The notes under the pieces were generated by a model, which was not told the origin of the DNA, did no database searches, and saw nothing but the letters and a program-made list of their open reading frames with translations. From Spizellomyces punctatus DAOM BR117 (Eukaryota): a DNA stretch of 64,000 nucleotides. Both the position numbers and the translations under genes were made by a program. Of the stretch, positions 49,528 through 64,000 are shown one piece after another. Every line of letters begins with the position of its first letter. Positions within the stretch are counted from its first letter, which is position 1. The stretch lies in the NCBI GenBank assembly GCA_000182565.2, contig KQ257466.1, one strand, 5' to 3'.

Positions 49528-50511
49528 CTAGTATCCGTACCCAGAAGCGAAGATGGCCCTGTTGCAGATACCATCGTCAACGAAACGAGCCACTTCAACC
49601 CCGCGCGGTCCCTCACAAGACCTGCTGGCGCACAGCAGGTTTCCGCGAACAGCACCGTCAGGGTGAGCAGCATTGTGAAGGTTAACGTAGAGCAGACCCT
49701 GGGCAAGCCACTTGTGTTGATCGTCGTTCAACACAATCTTTTGGGGGTTACGAACAGGGTTTTCTTGCGTTGAAAATTTTGGTTGAGGGAAAAGATCAAA
49801 CAGGACGGACGCATTCTTGTTGGGAGGTGCGGGGCCGTGGATGTGGATCTTTGTCAGAGGGGCAATGTTGAAGTGGGTCGCGGCAAACTTGATCTCCTTG
49901 GTATGCCTGTCCAAAAGGACCAATCCATGACCAAAGCCGGCTTCACCCTTGACTACAAAAGGGACTTCCTTTTCGCCGCACATGACAGCCTTGTAAACAT
50001 CGTACTTGCCCTCATCGTAGTACTCGTTGTATTCGTGGTACTCTTCTTCGCGGTACTCTTCTTCGTGGTGGGGAGGCTCCTGGTAGGTAGCACCCGCGTA
50101 AGGGCGGGCAGCATAGTAGCCTTTACGGGGTGAGTCTCCGTAACCATTGCTGATAAAACTCTTGTGCTTTGACTCTCCATAACCGTTGTGGTACGATTCG
50201 TGGCCATTGTTGTAGTGGGATCCGTACTGGCCCTCCTCGGAAATCAAGCACCACTGGCCATTCTCGTAGCCCCAACCGCGGCCCTCGTTATCGTAGGTTG
50301 GCTTGTGAACGTAGCCGTGGCAGTAGCGGTCGTAGTTGTCTTGGTGGTAAGAGACTTTGTTGTAATCGTCTTTGTAGTATTCATTGTCGTATTTGCTGTC
50401 TTCGTAATAGTCGTTGTGACCCCCATGGTTGTAATAGCTGGGCGCAGCAATAGCAGCCGATGCCAAAAGAACAGCGCCAGCAATCGAAGCGAGGAATGTT
50501 TTTGGTGCCAT
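49528..50511 (-). CDS. Secreted Tyr/His-rich protein with a CBM10/dockerin-like module and a C-terminal CHRD domain
   Basis: Signal peptide; YC..YDNEGRGWGYENGQWCLI; CHRD motifs IHIHGPAPP..NASVLFDL and GLLYVNLHNAAHPDGAVRGNL. Confidence 0.88.
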   Translation of the reverse strand: MAPKTFLASIAGAVLLASAAIAAPSYYNHGGHNDYYEDSKYDNEYYKDDYNKVSYHQDNYDRYCHGYVHKPTYDNEGRGWGYENGQWCLISEEGQYGSHYNNGHESYHNGYGESKHKSFISNGYGDSPRKGYYAARPYAGATYQEPPHHEEEYREEEYHEYNEYYDEGKYDVYKAVMCGEKEVPFVVKGEAGFGHGLVLLDRHTKEIKFAATHFNIAPLTKIHIHGPAPPNKNASVLFDLFPQPKFSTQENPVRNPQKIVLNDDQHKWLAQGLLYVNLHNAAHPDGAVRGNLLCASRSCEGPRGVEVARFVDDGICNRAIFASGYGY

Positions 50512-52787
50512 TTCTAAAACGATGTGATGTGTTTATTGGTAAATGATCAAAGGCGATGGAGGAAGGCTGGTAAGGGGCCTTTGCTTTTGTAGTTGCACTG
50601 GTAGTGGTGGTGATGTGTGTTCTGATGTGTTCAAGCAAGCCCAAGGTAACCTGCCCTTTTATAAAATAGATATGGCACCGCCGCTGGTCGTCGGCTTTTG
50701 GACCTAAAGAAAAGCACAGGAGAGCTGGCTGAAAATCCGGCTGAGGAATGCATTTTGGGAATCCGCCCCCTCTCCGTTGATGGTAACACTAGGCAAAAAG
50801 GCCCACACGAGGAAGGAATTCAACACAAGTTTGTCCGGTTGGCTTATCGGACAAAACTAACAAAGTGTGCATTTTTGGGCTGAAGATCACTGAGGCTTAG
50901 CAACGCGTCGCTTTTTTGGCGTTGCTTTTGGGGGCCTTTTTTCAGGGCTTCAGCCCAACTTGACCGTTTTTGCTGTGAGCGATTGACGAGTTCCGCAGCA
51001 ACAAAAAAGTTTTATTTTCCAAGCAGGTGTTTGGTTTCGCTTTGCGCAGGGTACAAATGTGGCTAGAGACCAGACATCAGCAGCTGTCTAATGACTTGCA
51101 AGCTGTGCTCAAAGGGACTACCCATGCATGATGGACCAGTCTGATCGAATTGCGCACGTAGTTTAGACAGCCCATTGCTCTTAAGGCTTTCCAGGGATTT
51201 GCCCATCATATCAAAACGAACGCATGTGGTTCATCGGTCCGTGCGCATATGAATGGCTCCCTTGAAAACTCATACCTGCTCGGTTACCAGCGGTTCCCGA
51301 CACTGTCATGTGCACCTTATCCCGCCTTGGTTTTTAAAGCAGGTCTTTGTCCAATCCCTAATGATGGTGCTGTCATTCATGAAGGATTGCTTGCAATCTG
51401 GTCGCCACTTGTTTTTTTTTCCTACAGCCTACAGGACTCGACCGTGAACAACACGCAAAACAAGAAAAAAAAGGAACACCTTTTTGGTCTAACGTGCGCC
51501 ATCAATGATTATAAATGGATACGGTGCGGTGTTAAATGATGGATTATCAAATTATGGAAATTCCTGGCCAAACGCGTAGGGGAAGAAGGTCTCACCTTTT
51601 TTACCACTTGTTGGAACACCCCCATTCTGTTCTGGCCATTTGGTGTCAGACTTGATCTTTTGGGACAGTCTTTTTATTTTTTATTTTGACGTTCGACTAT
51701 TTACATACAAGAACATTGTGAGTTGTTGTTCTGGGAGCGAGCGTCTGTAGATCTGTCTAACCTAGGGCTTCATTTACTCAAGTACCTCTGGTCTTTATTT
51801 TTTTTTTTTCGGCACACTTTTTCCCGAGTGGTTTCTGTCTTTGAAACTCTGCACCAATTTAGGGTGAGTAGCAAAGAAACACCAAAGAACAAGCTGGGAT
51901 TGAGGGGAGAGATGGACTCTGGAGAGGAGAGACATTTGGACACTGCTTGCGACGGACGTGTGTGGCATTGTGGAACGGCCGTTCTTTGACGTTGGAGTTA
52001 ACGAAGCAAGGTGCTTGGGCCCTCTTATCGGTCAAACGTCGCAAGCGGGAGGACAATTGTCTGCGACAAATGTTGCGTTCCACTAGTTGGCGGAATTAGC
52101 TTTTTGCCAGAGGCCGGCATAGGGGCCCTAGGAGCCTTAGGGAGGCTTGGGAATTCGTGCATGTGCAGAATGAACGTGCCTAGTGACTGAAAATCCCTCC
52201 ATTTGGTACCCCTTATAGGTTTTATCCCAGCAGCCTTGCAAACCTCCCTTATCCACTGAAGGCTCCTTTCGGTATGTGTGCAGTTTCGGTCGTCTGTGTT
52301 GCCCCACCCGTACTCATAGAGTATGCTAGATCTTTTGTCGTCGAATACTGCTTAACTATACGTGAGGCGAACGCTACGAGTTGTCATAAATCGCAGAATT
52401 GGTCTACATTTAAATAATCGATGGTAAGCGCCGGTGTTGGTTTTCGTTCAAAATGGTCGGAGATTGATTTTGTCTGTGCAATTGCAGGCTAGGGATCACC
52501 CTCTGCTGAAATTGATCTCTTCTTTTGAAACGCGACAGCCTTTGCACCTGGAAGTCCCGCCGTTCTTGAAGCGGTTGTTGGATTGTATGTATATCGTCCG
52601 ATGAACGTCCCTCTCACAGTCCTTGCTAAATTGTGAAAACCATTAGATGGTCAAAAGACCGGCGTCCGGAAACCAATCCTGTGATTGCTGAAACCTGCAG
52701 ATCAAAGTATTCTCCTTCCCTCTCTGTTTTGCCGTCGGCAGACGACCGCCCCTTCCGTTGCTTGATTCGGCAAAATCATCTTTTATC

Positions 52788-55632
52788 ATGTCTGGAAGCG
52801 AATATCGTATAAGCGGAGGGAGCCAGCAGTCTGACGAAGAGGATGAAGACAACCGCGTTATTGAAGTACGTGTTCCAATGACAAGGCGTACGTGTCATAC
52901 ATCAATTCGCTGTACTAAACATGTCCATCTTTGCAGACGGATCCAACAGGACGATTCGAGCGCTATGCCGAGTGTCTCGGCAAAGGGGCATATAAAGAGG
53001 TGTTCAAGGCGTTTGACACCGAAGAGGGCGTCGAAGTTGCGTGGAATCAACTGCGCATTGACCACCTACTGAAGCGTGAAGCCCAACGAATTCTCTCTGA
53101 GATCCAAATTCTAGAATCTTTGCGAAATGATAGTATCATTGTAAGTTGCCGCGCGCCAAATATGCATTCCACATATGGATTCCATTATATGCTCACGGAT
53201 CACTTGTAGAATATGTATCACAGTTGGATTGCCAAAGGCAAAGATGGAAAAGATAAAGTGTATTTTATCACCGAGCTCATGACCTCGGGAACCTTGAAGA
53301 GCTATATCCGCAAGACGAAAGGAGCTGTTAAGCCAAAGGTCTTGAAAAGCTGGTGCCGCCAGATTTTATCGGGTTTGCATTATCTGCATACAAGAGATCC
53401 TCCGATTATTCACAGGTTAGTTTTTGATATACTCTCTCTGATGTTTGTGCACGTTCTGATGGTTGCGGTGTATCCAGAGACTTGAAGTGCGAAAACGTAT
53501 TCATCAATGGAAACAATGGACAAGCGAAAATTGGCGATCTAGGACTCGCTGTTGTGAAACACCGAGACCATGTCTCATCAGTCCTTGGGTGAGTCCATAC
53601 TGCTTGGGCCTTTTAAAATGAACTAGGATACTCATAAAACTGGATTAGTACCCCGGAATTCATGGCTCCTGAACTGTACGACGAGAAGTACGATGAGAAA
53701 GTGGATATTTACGCATTTGGCATGGTATGTTGCAGTGTGCGTGACATTTGGTGGTTGCAGGTTGGCAACATATGAAGCTCACACATTTTTACCTAGATGA
53801 TGCTTGAAATTATTACCAAAGAGTACCCATACAGCGAATGTACGAACCAAGCGCAAATCTACAAAAAAGTCTCTTCAGGGATCAAACCACGAGCTCTACA
53901 AAAGATCGAAGACGATGAAACGAGAAGATTTGTCGAACTTTGCATCGCCTTTAACCCTTACCAGCGACCCACTGCCGAAGAACTGTTACGGCACCCTTTC
54001 TTGATACCCACCCAAGGGTCGATGGTGTCTGTCAATAGCTTGGAAGGATCAACGGAGATGGTCAAGGAGCCACGTGGCGCAAAGCACGAACACCATGGAT
54101 CTGTGACGTCCGCGTCGTCGTTTGAATCACCGGTCAATGGGGACAGTGGTAGCTCCGCCTGGCATTCCGATCGACAGCCAGCTACGCAACCGGCACTGAC
54201 GAATGCAGTGCCAGTTATGGTGGATGCGGAGAACCATACTTTTGAAATCCTTAAACGTGGGCATCCTGCAAACTTGCCACCCCACGGATCGGGCACGGTG
54301 TGTTCAGTGGAGGTTGTCGAGCGGCTTAATGATGAGGAGGTGCAAGTCAAAATGATCTATACCATGTCAGGACGACCCAGTCAAGAGATCAAGTTTCCGT
54401 TCAGCATTGCAGCAGACACTTCCAGAGACGTCGTGGGTGAGATGGTGCGAGAAGGGATTATTGATACTGGAGATGAACCCGTTGCTGTGGAGCGGCTGGA
54501 GAGTGCTGTGCGGGCAGTTATCAGCGGCGAGGCGTCATCTTCCGAGGGTGGGTCAGTTGAACTGAGACGGGTGACTAATGGACGACGGGGTGAGAGTTAT
54601 GAGCGTGGGGTGTCAGCAGAGCGGTATGGTTCCCTTTATCCCTCTGCACATTCTTCTCCGCCATTGTCTCCAGCGACATTCCCGCGGTATCGGCACGCAA
54701 GTGAGCCTGAAGCCCCTGTCTCCACGCTAGTGAGGCACAATACCATGCCAAGGTCTGTGTCAAATGCCTCCATTGGGCATGCCAATACGCGATTGGCGCA
54801 GGTTTATTCTGTTAGTCCGGGCTCGAGCCCGGTCCCGAGTCCCATCACAACGTCCCCGACGATGCGAAAAGCCGACACGTCCGATGTGCGCATGGGACAT
54901 GGCCATTCACTCTCGATTGAGAGTGTTGCCAGCGGAGCTGAGAGTTTGAGCACGAGTTCTTCCTCGCGGCCCGTTACGCCACTTGGAGGCGAGTGGTTTA
55001 CGGAACGTCCTAGTGGAGAGGACGGAATCAAGGATGCTGTTGCCGTACAAGTCATCGATGGTGACATGTCCGCCCTCCCAGCTGTGCACGACTGGCCTCT
55101 TGAAGGCGGAGCACTTTTGCCACCGCATGTCGTGATACCCCACTCCACCACCGCCGTCATCCCCGCACCCCTCACGTCCTCTCACCCACCCATCCGCGTC
55201 GACACAGCCGTCCACAAAAAACTCGCGGAACTCCAAGAACTCAATCTCCGAGGCTTTGGCAACCTTGCCTCGCATGCTAAACCCTCATCAGCCCTCGTCT
55301 CTTCCTTCCCTACTCTTCCCCCCTCATCTGTCGTGGGCGGTTTCATGAGTCTTGGCCAGATGGCCGGCGGTCAACCCCGCAGCGCACCGATTGGAGGACA
55401 CCGACCCCCCATTTCGTTTGGGAGTCAACCAAGCGGGTTCACATCTGGGTTCTATTCCACTGCACCAACGACAGATCGTCCACCACAAAAGTTTGTACCG
55501 TCTTCTTCTCAACCACCCGCGAACGGGAATGGGACGGGAAGACCGCGTGGACTTGAAGAATGGACGCGTGGAGAAACGAATGGGGCGGTGCAGGCGCCGT
55601 CTAGAGATGATGGGGTGAATTTGATGGATTGA
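52788..55632 (+). CDS. WNK: WNK (With-No-Lysine) family Ser/Thr protein kinase, multi-exon
   Basis: [25 protein letters not shown] (catalytic Lys in subdomain I, absent from beta3), [62 protein letters not shown]-like [13 protein letters not shown]. Confidence 0.95.
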
Positions 55633-58982: not shown

Positions 58983-59869
58983 TTATTCATGCGCAAAACG
59001 ACAATGTGGACCAGCCCAACACCGTCCTTGCGCAAAATACCGGCACTTGACCTTGTTATGTGTCGGAGCTGTACCCGGGTGCGCCGAAAACGCCGTCCCA
59101 CCCGTCGAAGTCTACATTCCCAAAGCAACAATCAATTTTCCGTTATGCAAGACTATATATATATATCGAGTTTTACGTACGGGGTAGGCAGCGATATAAG
59201 GTCCAGGCCCAATGTAATGGCTAAATCGACAATTTTGTCCCGCCCAGCAGCGACCTTGTTGAAAGTATCTACACACTGGAATAATTTGCTAAAAAAAAAA
59301 AAAAAACAAAACAAAGACGTGGTAAACATGTGTGTGCTTGTGAGAGAGAGTGCTCTTGCCATTCGGGGCCCGGGACGTTCACCGTACCTGAGGATACATA
59401 GGAACCGGATATCCAGGAACCATCCCATACGACGCATTCGGAGGTGGAGACCCGATAGCGGGAATCGGGGGTAAACCATAGACTTGAAGCGGCGATGTCA
59501 CGGAATACGCGTGTGGAGAGGTGGGAGCTGTGGGAAGGGTGGCAGGGAACGCATCAAAAAAGAGTCCTGGAGGTTTGGACGGGTCATAGGAAAAGAATTC
59601 GGGTGGTGTCGTTGTTGTGCTTGTTGTGCTGGTGGTCGTGCGTTTCTTTGTAGACGACTGCTGTTGTTGTTGTTGCTCTTGGTGTGCTTGTTGTTGTTGT
59701 TGTTGTTGTGTGCGTGGGCGGGGAGTAGGTGTGGCAGAGAGTAGCAGACCGCTATTGGTATTGCTGTTGGCTGGTGGTTGTTGTGGCGGGTGTGGGAGGT
59801 AAAGCATGGCGTGCTCGGGAGAGACTGCATAGTCGCCGCTGTAATAGTACGCGGACGCGAGGTTTTGTA

Positions 59870-59903
<34 letters not shown>

Positions 59904-60380
59904 TTGTTGTTGTTGTTGTAGGTGCTGTGGCTGTTGTTGGTGGTGGTTGGGAAGGAGGTGATGATGGACAGGGTGCTGGTGCAATGGCAGTGCATGTTGA
60001 CCACCATTTTGTTGTTGCTGTAGTTCATCTTTTCCTTCCGCCCCATTGTCCTCCTCCAGTCCGACTGCTACTCCTGTTGTTCCTGCTGGTGGGGCGTGGG
60101 ATTTGACCCAAGAAGCGGACAAGGTCGTAGGATACATGATTTCCTGTTCTGCACCGGGCGCGACCTGCGGCGGCGGTGGCGGCAAATGCCGTTGTGAATC
60201 CTTATCCTGTTGCTGTTGCTGTGTATCATCTCCAATGACTTTGAGAGGGGAAGTCGCTGCACTGGAAGCGGATTTGAGAGCAGGCGTGGATGGACGTGAA
60301 CCCGACTCTTGTACTGTCATTTGACAGAGAGCCGTAATGAGCTCTGCCGTTCCATCGAGTGTGTCAGTTGTTGACATCAT
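58983..60380 (-). CDS. Gln-rich protein with two C-terminal CCCH zinc fingers, 3 exons
   Basis: Splicing gives CRYFQQGRCWAGQNCRFSH and CRYFAQGRCWAGPHCRFAHE* (C-x7-C-x5-C-x3-H). These exons are missed by the ORF track. The N-terminus carries poly-Q tracts. Confidence 0.88.
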
Positions 60381-61017
60381 TTGCGACTAGGGAGAGTGGT
60401 GGAGGGGGGGCAGAGCGGGCGAGCCAAAAGGGAGGAAACGAGAGGAAACAAAAAGGGTGGTGGTGGGGGACCGCGCGCAAAAACAAAAGGAAAACTCGCA
60501 AGTCCGACCACTGGCAGACAGAGAGAAAGAAATACTCGTAGGAGGAGAAAGAGTTGCAAAGAGACGCAAACGTTCAGGAATGCGTTGGTCCCCAAAATTG
60601 CCCGTATATACTCTTTCCAAAACAAAACTCGTTTGTAAACAAATAAACTAGTAGTAGGACTCGTTCCCGACTAGAAAACACATGCGATCGTGGCTCAAAG
60701 ACAAGAGTTGCGCGCGCGCGAGAGAGAGACGGAGGGGGAGGAGGTAACAAGAAGCAAAGAGGTGGGAGGGAAGAGAGAGCGCGCGCGAGGGATAAAATAG
60801 GTGAAGAATTCAAGAAATGAAAGAAGAAAGAAGGGGGGAGGGAATAATAAACTCCTTTTAATAAACAAAAGAAGGAGAGAGAGAGATACTAATGAATAAA
60901 AAAGGGATAAACAATGTGATATAACTTGTCACTTACTGCGTATGAATGTGTTGAATAGATGAATGAATTGCTCTTGTCTTCCTTTCTTGTTTTCCCGTGT
61001 AGTTGTTGTTCCTAGTA

Positions 61018-61231: not shown

Positions 61232-62534
61232 GCGTCTCCTGATTCGTACAAACCCATGATGACATCACATGAACACATTTGTCTTGATTAGGCAATGATT
61301 CCATCTTTTGCACCAATAAAGTTTATTATAACAAATTTCAAACACAATGCATTTTGCATTATTCCCTCCATTACACACTCATATCTCTCATTTAATCACG
61401 GCTTGATGGATTCACTCGAGAATCTCCAGGGCGTGCATTGGATGGCACACTGGATTTTTCTATACTCGGTGCATTCGTATCTCTTAGAGGGGTTGGTCCA
61501 AAGCCTTGTGTCAGTCGGGATTCATGACTCGCTGTTTTGGGTTCACTTGTTGGCTTGTCCAGTACAACCTATCAAAGAAATGATTTTGGCATATGCACAC
61601 ATGCACACATACATGTTTAATAGTTTTCATGTTTTACCTCTTTGAATTGCTGCAGGATGGGCTTTTCGCGTTCATCAATGTCTGGCATTCTGAAAATGTG
61701 TGAGAGAGAGAGAAAGAAACTAGGAAAGATTTGGTCTGTCTGCGCAAATGTGTTTGCCTGTACAAAAAACCACTGTGGGGTGTGTATTGAGGTTACCTCT
61801 CGCTTTAAATAGTTGCGACGCTCTCAGTGATGTCATGCACGTGGTATAAGTGGGTGGGAAATGGGTAGGTAATGACGATTGTGTATTAGCGGGTCATCTA
61901 GAGTGGGCTTTTACAAGAAGGGACATGACGAGGTGTGAAATCGAGTCATCAAGAATACCCATCAGATGAACGACAGCCTTTAGCGCGTCACGGAAATTCC
62001 AAAGTATATCACTTTTGACACTGTTTATCACTCGTCACCCCCCGTGGGGGGCCTCACCCTCTAGGGCCTAGACTCTAATCATGCAAACTAATGCAACGGA
62101 TGAAACTGGATTGATGAGCAGAGTACGAGTGGTCTTTCACTTTTATTAAAACTAGCTCTGTATCAAAACACCCCACACCCCAAAGGCCCAGACCCTCTCT
62201 CATCCCAAACCCAAGCTCGTAACATTTCAACAATGTAGTGTTCCAAAACGGGGGGAGGCATCTTACACAGGGCTTTGACATGGAACAAATACCAAAATGG
62301 AATGGAGAGTGCGTTCTTGTTATTCTTGAAATATGTACATCATGTTTTTGTAAAAAAAAAAAAAAGGGCAACAATACCCTCCAGTCTCCCCCTCAACTAA
62401 ATACACACACACACGTACAGAGATACAAATATTCCTTTGTCCGCTCCGAATCAATAAAATATCGCATTCACCATCTTTGCTCATGTACAATGTCAACCCG
62501 ATTCCTCTACCCTTAGCTCACGATATGCATTGCT

Positions 62535-63454
62535 TCATTTCTTGCTCGTGTTCGTGTTGGTGTTCACGGGTTGGCCAGTCCCCTCAGCCTTCTTTCTCGA
62601 CGCCCAATAGTTTTGCCCATACGACACAGTCAACTCTTCTCCTGGGTACAGAGGCTTGATCGACACGTAGATCGGTCTCCACAGATTATTCCACGGAACG
62701 TAAACAACATCACAGTTGGGATCATCATCATGGTTTACAAATCTCGCAATGTTGCCGATAAATTGGGAATCAACACCCAAGGCCATGATATTCCCATTCT
62801 CATCACGAATCCGACTGTAATAATGCCATTCGTAATCCGTTGATCGCGACGAATTCACCAGCATGCCAGAATACTCGGTAATGAACGCATAGGGAGGGAT
62901 ATACGCATCGGTAAACACTCCAAACTTTTTAGCTTCCCCCGTCCATTGAACGTAAAACCGTCTATCGTTGGTAATAAACTTATCCAGAATAGGTCCAAAC
63001 ACACGGGCATAATTATCGTATAATTCCTTTTCGGCGACGTAGTACTCGTCTTTTGTCAAGTCGTGGGATTCAATGTACGGTTTGAGAGAATCGGGGATAA
63101 TAAGGTTGTGAGTGTGTCGGAGGCCGAACCATGTTTCGAAATCTTCGGGGTAGAACCGACGGGTTTTCCAGGCTTCGACCGCGGGTGCGGCTGTTTCCAC
63201 TGTACCCGCAGTGGATGGGAACAGTGTTTGGATCTTTTCCAATTTCAGTGCCTAAGATTTTTGACAAACAGCAAAATTGCAATGAGCATCTTTTGCTCAT
63301 TTCCGCCCCTTGGTTCTCTAAACTCCTGTTCTTTTACCTGACTCCCCAACAAGATTCCAGCAATAAAAGTAATCGACAAGACAAAGTACCGCTTGGCACT
63401 CGACGACCCTTGCGAAATGGGCTTGTACCCCTTTTGTGTATGCGCTTGACCCAT
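62535..63454 (-). CDS. SET-domain lysine methyltransferase with an N-terminal signal anchor, 2 exons
   Basis: Exon 1 MGQAHTQ...KRYFVLSITFIAGILLGSQ joins through a phase-0 GT-AG intron to ALKLEKIQT. SET motifs: FGVFT, FITEYSG, GNIARFVNHDDDPNC, GEELTVSYG..YW. Confidence 0.88.
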
Positions 63455-64000
63455 CCTTGTTAATATGTGTAAAAGAAGGAAACTGGGATATGGAAGAGAG
63501 AGGAGGGAATCACTCATAAGTTTCCTTTAAATACTCGCCATTGTCTTTCTACCCAAAAAGATTGGGTTCCCCATCCAATATGAAAGTCAACGATCCAGAT
63601 TAGTTTTTGAAACAACGTTTCATTTAAGGTTACTCGTTGTGCAGCGCCACTGGGCCGCGTACCATGACTGTGCCATGGATGGGACCATATGGCCGGGGGG
63701 TAAATCAATTGATGAGTGGCTTATTAGCAATGCGAGAGGGGAGTACAAGGCGGCGGTTACTGTGGGTGGATCCGACGGTAACTTTGCGAGTGGACAAAGA
63801 AACCCCCGCGGCAAGTTGACAAACGAAAGAAGTTTGCAAATAAAGAGAACAAAACTCGCAATACCAGCCGTTTACTGTACAGTGTGGAAATGGATGGCAA
63901 GGGCAATAGCCGTCATGTTTTGAAATATAGGACACTCCCACTTTTCCATCCAATTTGATTTTTTCATTGTCTCATTAGCCGCACTCGGAATGACTCGGCA

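Follow-up and report, generated by a model that had tools for sequence, protein, structure and literature searches.

A small SET-domain protein behind a hydrophobic N-terminal helix in Spizellomyces punctatus: a possible secretory-pathway methyltransferase from an old family of early-diverging fungi

SET enzymes are, as far as we are aware, regarded as nuclear or cytosolic modifiers of chromatin and of other proteins. What does a SET domain do behind a hydrophobic N-terminal helix, on which side of a membrane would it work and where did it come from? We studied these questions for a gene on the minus strand of a 64,000-nucleotide stretch of Spizellomyces punctatus DAOM BR117 (assembly GCA_000182565.2, contig KQ257466.1). 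This whole stretch is called the window, and positions without a further label refer to it. Read from the sequence, the gene at 62535-63454 is a two-exon chytrid gene that encodes a small SET enzyme with a predicted membrane anchor or export signal in front. We put the probability at roughly 0.5 that the product is a signal-anchored or secreted SET methyltransferase of the secretory lumen, belonging to an old family of early-diverging fungi and built on a bacterial-type module.

The window sequence gives a minus-strand gene of two exons with a product of 277 amino acids (aa). Translation starts at the ATG at 63454-63452. Exon 1 (63454-63338, 117 nt, 39 codons, MGQAHTQ...GILLGSQ) encodes a basic N-terminal tail (aa 1-22, 63389..63454 including the start codon; net charge +4, no acidic residues) followed by the larger part of a hydrophobic helix (aa 23-39 of the segment 23-41, 63338..63388). 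A GT..AG intron of 86 nt in phase 0 (63337-63252) separates it from exon 2 (63251-62535), which holds 238 codons and the TGA stop codon at 62535..62537. A preliminary description of this DNA had proposed that a hydrophobic exon is spliced in frame onto a SET exon, and the phase 0 junction agrees with this. It had placed the intron at about 63252-63340; the boundary at 63252 is correct and the other one lies at 63337. Retention of the intron would lead to a stop after 33 codons, and its 86 nt are not divisible by 3. In exon 2 the earliest Met falls within the SET domain, so that a complete protein requires exon 1. The residues at the junction are also found in annotated proteins from five other species or isolates of Spizellomyces 'palustris', Powellomyces and Geranomyces: in Spizellomyces 'palustris' and in Powellomyces the sequence is GSQ|AL, and two proteins of Geranomyces variabilis have GSH|AL. 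We chose 63454 as the start because orthologues begin with MG or MA, as is the case for six of the nine orthologues in Spizellomycetales. An in-frame ATG further upstream (63515-63517) would put 21 extra residues (MSDSLLSLPYPSFLLLHILTR) ahead of MGQ.

Exon 2 matches the Pfam SET family PF00856 with E=1e-17 and 64.9 bits (cut-off 22.4) across profile positions 2-105 of 105, and the domain covers aa 149-251 (62616..62924). For AWS, pre-SET and post-SET there was no Pfam match to exon 2 at E<=1, nor was any other family above threshold. The protein has a single Cys in 277 aa (aa 219), and the Cys-rich zinc clusters of SUV39-, SET2- and EZH-type enzymes are not present. The Pfam scan and the Cys count agree with the earlier account of a bare SET domain next to a hydrophobic helix. 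The AlphaFold2 (AF2) model of the exon-2 product has a predicted local distance difference test score (pLDDT) of 90.6, and its residues 27-90 are helical and pack ahead of a standard SET core. This family-specific pre-SET region (aa 67-140, 62949..63170; W..R.FYP.DFE..FG ... YDNYARVFGP) has a pLDDT above 94 and is kept in the fungal and in many bacterial members, with profile matches beginning at about position 60-80.

The best Foldseek matches to this model were G9a/GLP (E about 4e-11, about 135-145 columns). An exhaustive VIA-align search returned 43 chains with Z>=8, with SET or PR domains among the matches listed. The best of them was ATXR5 (4o30_A: Z 16.2, root-mean-square deviation 3.0, 178 residues, model residues 31-220), followed by NSD2 (Z 15.8), SETD2 (Z 14.8) and LegAS4 (8swi, Z 12.3), and the pre-SET helices superpose on the nSET helices of ATXR5 (4o30). 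The G-N-x-x-R-F-x-N-H motif, Tyr250 and the Y..W.Y and YW motifs are all conserved in the family. The NH motif is the motif of SET domains that binds S-adenosylmethionine (SAM); here it reads GNIARFVNH (aa 205-213, 62730..62756), with G, N, R, F and N near-invariant across the fungal and bacterial rows of our alignment. Tyr250 in EELTVSYG (62619..62621) aligns with the FDY tyrosine of EHMT1, which is the position of the SET catalytic tyrosine, and the column shows Y in 101 rows of the fungal clade described below and in 90 of 90 bacterial rows. The protein is probably a minimal SET-domain lysine methyltransferase whose activity is predicted from these hallmarks. A site with Lys in place of Gly (KFGVF), part of a SAM-pocket motif, is listed in the region of 62805-62810.

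The gene is not alone. Of 166 candidates from a word-index search, 10 proteins reached E<=1e-3, nine of them from Spizellomycetales (54-89% identity) and one from Nowakowskiella (37%). We ran a profile of 11 sequences (the window protein and its 10 relatives) against 1.84 billion representatives and obtained 8421 proteins at E<=1e-3, 1013 at E<=1e-10 and 81 at E<=1e-30. The best 150 matches mostly extend from about profile position 60-80 to 260, that is over the pre-SET region and the SET domain. Among 30 representatives that were looked up 11 bore a name and all 11 were fungi. The named fungal members are Chytridium lagenaria, Zopfochytrium, Phlyctochytrium bullatum, Cladochytrium, Nowakowskiella, Gorgonomyces, Quaeritorhiza, Hyaloraphidium, Paraphysoderma and Sorochytrium (both Blastocladiomycota) and Basidiobolus meristosporus. 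Lower-ranking representatives looked bacterial, with lipoboxes and AT-rich composition. A further word-index search, this time started from a 40-sequence alignment, returned 13 proteins and did not add any named taxon, and none of 915 candidates was a longer fused form, which is weak evidence. Pfam found only SET in 10 long family members, the sole informative extra domain being LIM in the protein P0019. As far as these sequences tell, this is an old family across Chytridiomycota, Blastocladiomycota, Hyaloraphidium and Basidiobolus and neither a lone nor a recent acquisition. The earlier suggestion of a one-off acquisition by this organism does not agree with such a spread. Full-text literature searches of limited coverage returned no description of signal-anchored or secreted chytrid SET proteins, and within that coverage the fungal family is undescribed.

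A scan of prokaryotic genomes with seven representatives yielded 73 loci from Myxococcota, Desulfobacterales, Spirochaetales, Bacteroidota, Dependentiae (Babeliales, Chromulinivoraceae), Chlamydiota, Bacteriovoracaceae and others. The bit scores are comparable, as one chytrid profile was used for all groups: we obtained 217 bits for Bacteriovoracaceae, 120 for Myxococcota, 111 for Chromulinivoraceae (Dependentiae), 104 for Bacteroidota, 66-79 for Desulfobacterales and 43-90 for Chlamydiota, the latter from proteins of metagenome-assembled genomes (MAGs). Human G9a, the best solved canonical eukaryotic SET protein, reached 61 bits over the SET core only. With 217 compared to 61 bits the nearest non-fungal relatives are indeed bacterial SET proteins rather than canonical eukaryotic ones. 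The bacterial stand-alone SET proteins of about 200 aa, from Bacteriovoracaceae, Myxococcota, Dependentiae, Bacteroidota, Spirochaetales, Desulfobacterales and Chlamydiota, share with the chytrid protein the helical pre-SET region and a Cys-poor SET domain ending in YG..YW. Matches to the chytrid profile begin at about 60-80 in several phyla, and the best four groups score 104-217 bits. They differ in that most have no hydrophobic N terminus, some carrying a lipobox or an OmpH domain instead, and in having neither the glycosylation sequon of the fungal proteins nor introns. The two Bacteriovoracaceae genes (L036:2779-3387 and L038:461-1063, both from MAGs) encode proteins of 200-202 aa without a hydrophobic N terminus. 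The L038 product shares 40% identity with the window protein across 193 aa, and for the full-length L036 product (P0026) the identity is 37%. The L036 contig is 608 kb long with a uniform GC content of about 0.36 and dense open reading frames (ORFs), and the neighbours of the SET gene are of bacterial type: a trypsin-like peptidase, a DUF2279 lipoprotein, an FGE-sulfatase and a flavin reductase.

All trees were unrooted, contained no canonical eukaryotic SETs and excluded the 18 weakest bacterial loci (L056-L073), which matched the SET core only. The FastTree analysis comprised 206 rows; the truncated L036 ORF, P0158 and P0159 (duplicate cluster members), P0109 and the proteins longer than 600 aa (P0015, P0019, P0118, P0149 and P0155) were left out. 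It gave a clade of 118 rows with support 90 that holds every named fungus and the Bacteriovoracaceae pair. IQ-TREE (LG+C20 with posterior mean site frequencies, quick search, 84 chosen rows) recovered a clade of 46 rows, with a Shimodaira-Hasegawa approximate likelihood ratio test value of 99, made up of all fungal rows and again the Bacteriovoracaceae pair. The other bacteria all fell outside this clade, and the nearest group, with a support of only 85, holds Chlamydiota and Elusimicrobia. A clade of the 44 fungal rows without Bacteriovoracaceae was not rejected by the approximately unbiased (AU) test (p-AU 0.573), so the pair may be sister to the fungi or nested among them. On these alignments the fungal members form a single clade that lies within or beside a diverse bacterial family. 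A gene transfer between fungi and the predatory Bacteriovoracaceae, in either direction, is a candidate explanation, and any direction assigned to it is one that we infer. The ESM Atlas features agree with the placement of the fungal clade: Chlamydiota make up most of the nearest cluster and of the third nearest one, and the cluster between them is 60% eukaryotic, Oomycota being the most frequent phylum among just 5 records. Among the Dependentiae (Chromulinivoraceae, Babeliales) we also observed two genes, L003:2461-3564 (identical to P0115) and L008:431-1597, that combine a signal or lipobox, an OmpH/Skp-like domain (in P0115 the Pfam OmpH match has E=4e-9) and SET. Such a fusion points to a SET protein that is periplasmic or exported in these intracellular parasites of protists.

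The protein had initially been likened to the Chlamydia effector NUE and related bacterial SET proteins. The bacterial type is supported by the 104-217 bits of the best groups, whereas the label "NUE-type" is weakly supported: Chlamydiota scored 43-90 bits against 61 for G9a, and this likeness was judged on proteins of Chlamydiota MAGs and not on NUE's own sequence. NUE is described in part of one source as a type III-secreted nuclear histone methyltransferase with a SET domain 14-28% identical to eukaryotic SET domains (PMC2904774), and a passage of another treats the origin of bacterial SET genes as debated (PMC3980110). NUE (CT737) and cpnSET resemble the chytrid protein as small bacterial SET enzymes without Zn-cluster modules, and the environmental Chlamydiota proteins fall within the same broad family; in contrast to the chytrid protein with its hydrophobic anchor, NUE reaches the host nucleus by type III secretion (PMC3980110, in part). 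Legionella LegAS4/RomA is also a bacterial SET effector. The chytrid protein shows a weak NCBIfam match to it (E=5e-4, 18.9 bits) that lies far under the model cut-off of 550, and LegAS4 has, by the name of the model, ankyrin repeats and type IV secretion; it was absent from the best 60 PDB sequence matches of the family profile.

Among the eukaryotic enzymes G9a/GLP (EHMT2/EHMT1) gave the best sequence match of all solved structures (61 bits with the profile, 44 bits with the single sequence), with the NH motif and the catalytic Tyr aligned. However, only the SET core aligns (profile 146-260), and G9a/GLP carry Cys-rich pre- and post-SET Zn clusters. Structurally the closest is ATXR5, one of the plant H3K27 monomethyltransferases ATXR5 and ATXR6, and the superposition takes in the helices ahead of the SET core; the sequence identity is 18%, however, and ATXR5 has no membrane anchor. 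It is a nuclear chromatin enzyme with other N-terminal modules.

The feature that sets the chytrid protein apart is its N terminus. The hydrophobic stretch YFVLSITFIAGILLGSQAL comprises aa 23-41 with a 19-residue Kyte-Doolittle mean of 1.80. Its N-terminal flank carries a charge of +4 (four Lys/Arg and no acidic residue in 22 aa) and its C-terminal flank +1 over the next 15 residues, so that the basic residues noted earlier ahead of the helix are present. The full-length AF2 model of the orthologue P0001 (89% identical) has an isolated 22-residue helix at 21-42, then a linker with pLDDT 51-56 and then the domain; hence the helix lies outside the globular fold. In the window protein the end of the helix and the Ala/Thr/Pro-rich linker or stalk cover aa 40-66 (63171..63251, pLDDT 51-59), and the linker differs in length and sequence among homologues. 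We compared the presence of the helix across the family. It is kept in eight of the nine Spizellomycetales homologues with Kyte-Doolittle means of 1.56-1.90; the exception is P0003 of Phlyctochytrium arcticum, where a gene-model fault is possible. Across the 118 rows of the fungal clade, with a mean of at least 1.4 as criterion, 74 have a hydrophobic N-terminal segment, 20 have no extension (the two Bacteriovoracaceae rows included), 16 have an extension without a segment and 8 are partial. The helix does persist in other chytrids, a point on which the preliminary description had asked for a check. At the C terminus we found neither a KKXX nor an HDEL-type retrieval signal, and the tails there show no conservation. 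N-myristoylation of MGQAHT was considered, as the motif fits here, and was discarded as a family trait since P0004, P0005, P0008 and P0009 do not fit.

Which side of the membrane the SET domain faces can be approached through the flanking charges. Under the positive-inside rule a more positive N-terminal flank places the N terminus in the cytosol. Of the 74 rows with a segment, 49 carry more positive charge on the N flank and 9 on the C flank, and 16 show no difference. In 21 of the 74 rows the hydrophobic core starts at one of the first 12 residues, which gives them a signal-peptide-like start. Another pattern concerns the sequon N172-S-S in a loop following a beta strand (62847..62855). Of 97 fungal-clade rows 45 have an N-x-S/T sequon in this column, compared to 0 of 79 bacterial rows. 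The column has N in 52 of the 97 fungal rows, and 45 of these 52 have S or T at +2, compared to a background S+T frequency of 10.9%, with 10 different residues in the middle position. This looks like the signature of a used N-glycosylation site, the alternative being a structural Asx motif. The family member P0019 (1007 aa, Gly/Pro-rich) has three LIM domains, one hydrophobic segment (about 724-752) and a SET module with a TNNT sequon. If its gene model is real, the SET module would lie on the opposite side from the cytosolic domain; alternatively it may be a merged gene model. Some bacterial kin are exported, as indicated by lipoboxes in Myxococcota-like proteins and the OmpH-SET fusions in Dependentiae.

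On account of the charge bias, the signal-peptide-like members and the fungal-only sequon we favour a SET domain in the lumen or outside the cell, and give a non-cytosolic orientation, for an anchored lumenal enzyme and a secreted effector taken together, slightly better than even chances. An N-terminal signal-anchor, or perhaps a cleavable signal peptide ending ...GSQA|L, would route the protein to the secretory pathway. The short basic tail would remain cytosolic, and the linker, the helical pre-SET region and the SET domain would be found in the lumen of the endoplasmic reticulum (ER) or Golgi or on or outside the cell surface. The overall layout would be that of a type II Golgi enzyme, and the substrates would probably be lysines of secretory or cell-surface proteins. 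Plant Golgi methyltransferases, which rely on SAM transporters of the Golgi, have such a type II architecture. The likeness lies in the predicted short cytosolic tail, single helix, stalk and lumenal SAM-dependent domain; they differ in being non-homologous, with a class I fold instead of SET and polysaccharide substrates. The plant Golgi SAM transporters, as presented in part of 10.1101/2021.07.06.451061, offer a precedent for lumenal SAM-dependent methylation.

Several observations weigh against a lumenal enzyme. The charges were counted with a crude custom script and not with a dedicated topology predictor. The fungal domains show no overall excess of sequons (0.53 per 100 aa compared to 0.88 in the bacterial ones), the single Cys leaves the domain without disulfides, and 16 of the 118 clade rows have the N-terminal extension and lack the hydrophobic segment. 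The first G of the GxG-like motif (aa 148) is Lys here (KFGVF), a residue found in 10 fungal-clade rows in all, with Gly in 92. We know of no supply of SAM into the fungal secretory lumen, and membrane-bound COMT is an example of an N-terminal anchor with a cytosolic catalytic domain. The main rival, which we consider unlikely, is that the helix of the same protein tethers a cytosol-facing SET domain to the ER, the nuclear envelope or another organelle, where it would methylate cytosolic or nuclear proteins with SAM in plentiful supply. It is established that SET enzymes and SAM are usually cytosolic or nuclear, and the one Cys and the lack of a general sequon excess would be expected for such a protein, as would many bacterial relatives that are plain soluble, signal-less proteins of about 205 aa; the C flank is also the more positive one in 9 of 74 rows and the flanks are equal in 16. 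Against this arrangement stand the 49 of 74 rows with the more positive N flank (+4 against +1 here), the signal-peptide-like start in 21 of 74, a co-conserved N-x-S/T peculiar to the fungal clade and the order of LIM, hydrophobic segment and SET in P0019. A mitochondrial location, with a basic presequence and a stop-transfer anchor in the inner membrane, would leave the SET domain in the intermembrane space with access to cytosolic SAM. The 22 N-terminal residues, acid-free with a charge of +4 and rich in Ser, Gly and Ala, would suit a presequence, and an anchor with N inside and C outside matches the charge bias equally. We nevertheless regard it as quite improbable: 21 of 74 members open directly with a hydrophobic core, the N-terminal parts of others are long or acidic (e.g. 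EEEDEG ahead of the helix in P0014), and a conserved sequon would have no role there.

The preliminary description also considered a secreted NUE-type epigenetic effector directed at a host or prey, obtained from an intracellular bacterium, which would be freed by cleavage of a signal peptide and act on foreign histones. Many of the bacterial relatives come from predatory or intracellular groups (Bacteriovoracaceae, Myxococcota, Babeliales, Chlamydiota), two of the three nearest ESM Atlas clusters (the first and third) are mostly Chlamydiota, and GSQA|L, judging by the sequence, has small residues at -3 and -1 that would permit cleavage. This cleavage site is not conserved, however (GCQQ in P0005, GSQI in P0007). 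Many genera with family members are saprobic. Conservation over many genera, at least two fungal phyla and Basidiobolus, together with this saprobic habit and the weak chlamydial link (43-90 bits against 61 for G9a), makes a nucleomodulin the less likely reading; a cell-autonomous role fits better and we consider the effector improbable. NUE itself is a secreted, histone-methylating SET enzyme (PMC2904774, in part) and bears two basic stretches that resemble nuclear localisation signals (PMC3980110, in part). Near its C terminus the chytrid protein has SRKK as the sole basic cluster, and no signal comparable to the two of NUE is evident when judged by the partial description in PMC3980110, with NUE itself not aligned. 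We give least credence to the explanation that exon 1 lies outside the mRNA, the helix then being an annotation artefact or the gene being expressed otherwise than modelled. It draws on the RNA data. We mapped run X13, which bears the same species label, to 62000-64000 and obtained 330 reads, 311 of which lay only partly on the stretch. There was some depth in 30 of 30 bins with low depth inside the gene. The intron had a depth of 0-3 and no junction reads were listed, so the splice is unconfirmed by RNA, which is a further point against the lumenal enzyme. Another one is the orientation of the reads: first mates of minus orientation span 62268-62736 at the 3' end of the gene, and those at exon 1 point the opposite way, plus-oriented first mates spanning 62804-63607 at a depth of 0.2-8.6, and may stem from another transcript. 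Runs X1 and X7 were single contigs without a junction, and X14 gave no mapped read. The support for the gene model is comparative, from the junction residues in other annotated proteins. Against an mRNA without exon 1 stands that there would then be no start codon upstream of the conserved pre-SET region, that helix and junction residues are kept across genera in independently annotated genomes and that 74 of 118 clade rows have the hydrophobic segment.

Beyond the prediction of a lumenal enzyme, we offer only tentatively the wider picture of an undescribed SET family of early-diverging fungi with catalysis on the non-cytosolic side of a membrane, whose module entered the fungal stem by ancient exchange with bacteria and whose closest living bacterial partner, as donor or recipient, is Bacteriovoracaceae. 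If it is true, the fungal secretory pathway would import SAM, and secretory or cell-wall proteins would be methylated on lysines inside it. A SET family in this pathway would mean a new compartment for lysine methylation and would raise the concrete question, open to testing, of how SAM is carried into the ER or Golgi of fungi. The family is also a clear example of a SET module of bacterial type that became fixed early on in the fungi, and it has a striking close relative in the predatory Bacteriovoracaceae.

The remaining observations concern the surroundings of the gene. Four X13 reads have a loose end with a run of T before 62298, which fits a poly(A) site, and we regard 62298..62534 (about 237 nt) as the probable 3' untranslated region. 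The flip in read orientation within X13 could be a library artefact or stem from an antisense transcript that ends near 63607. Plus-oriented X13 reads also cover 62000-62468 with a depth of up to 35, and 10 reads have a loose end with a run of A behind 62396. This suggests a convergent plus-strand transcript at 62000-62468 whose 3' end overlaps the 3' untranslated region of the SET gene; no convincing ORF was seen for these reads. Further away in the window there are long ORFs at 49528-50532 (-), 53797-55632 (+) and 59379-60386 (-), among which one has a signal-peptide-like start, one resembles the C-terminal part of a protein kinase and one is very Gln-rich.

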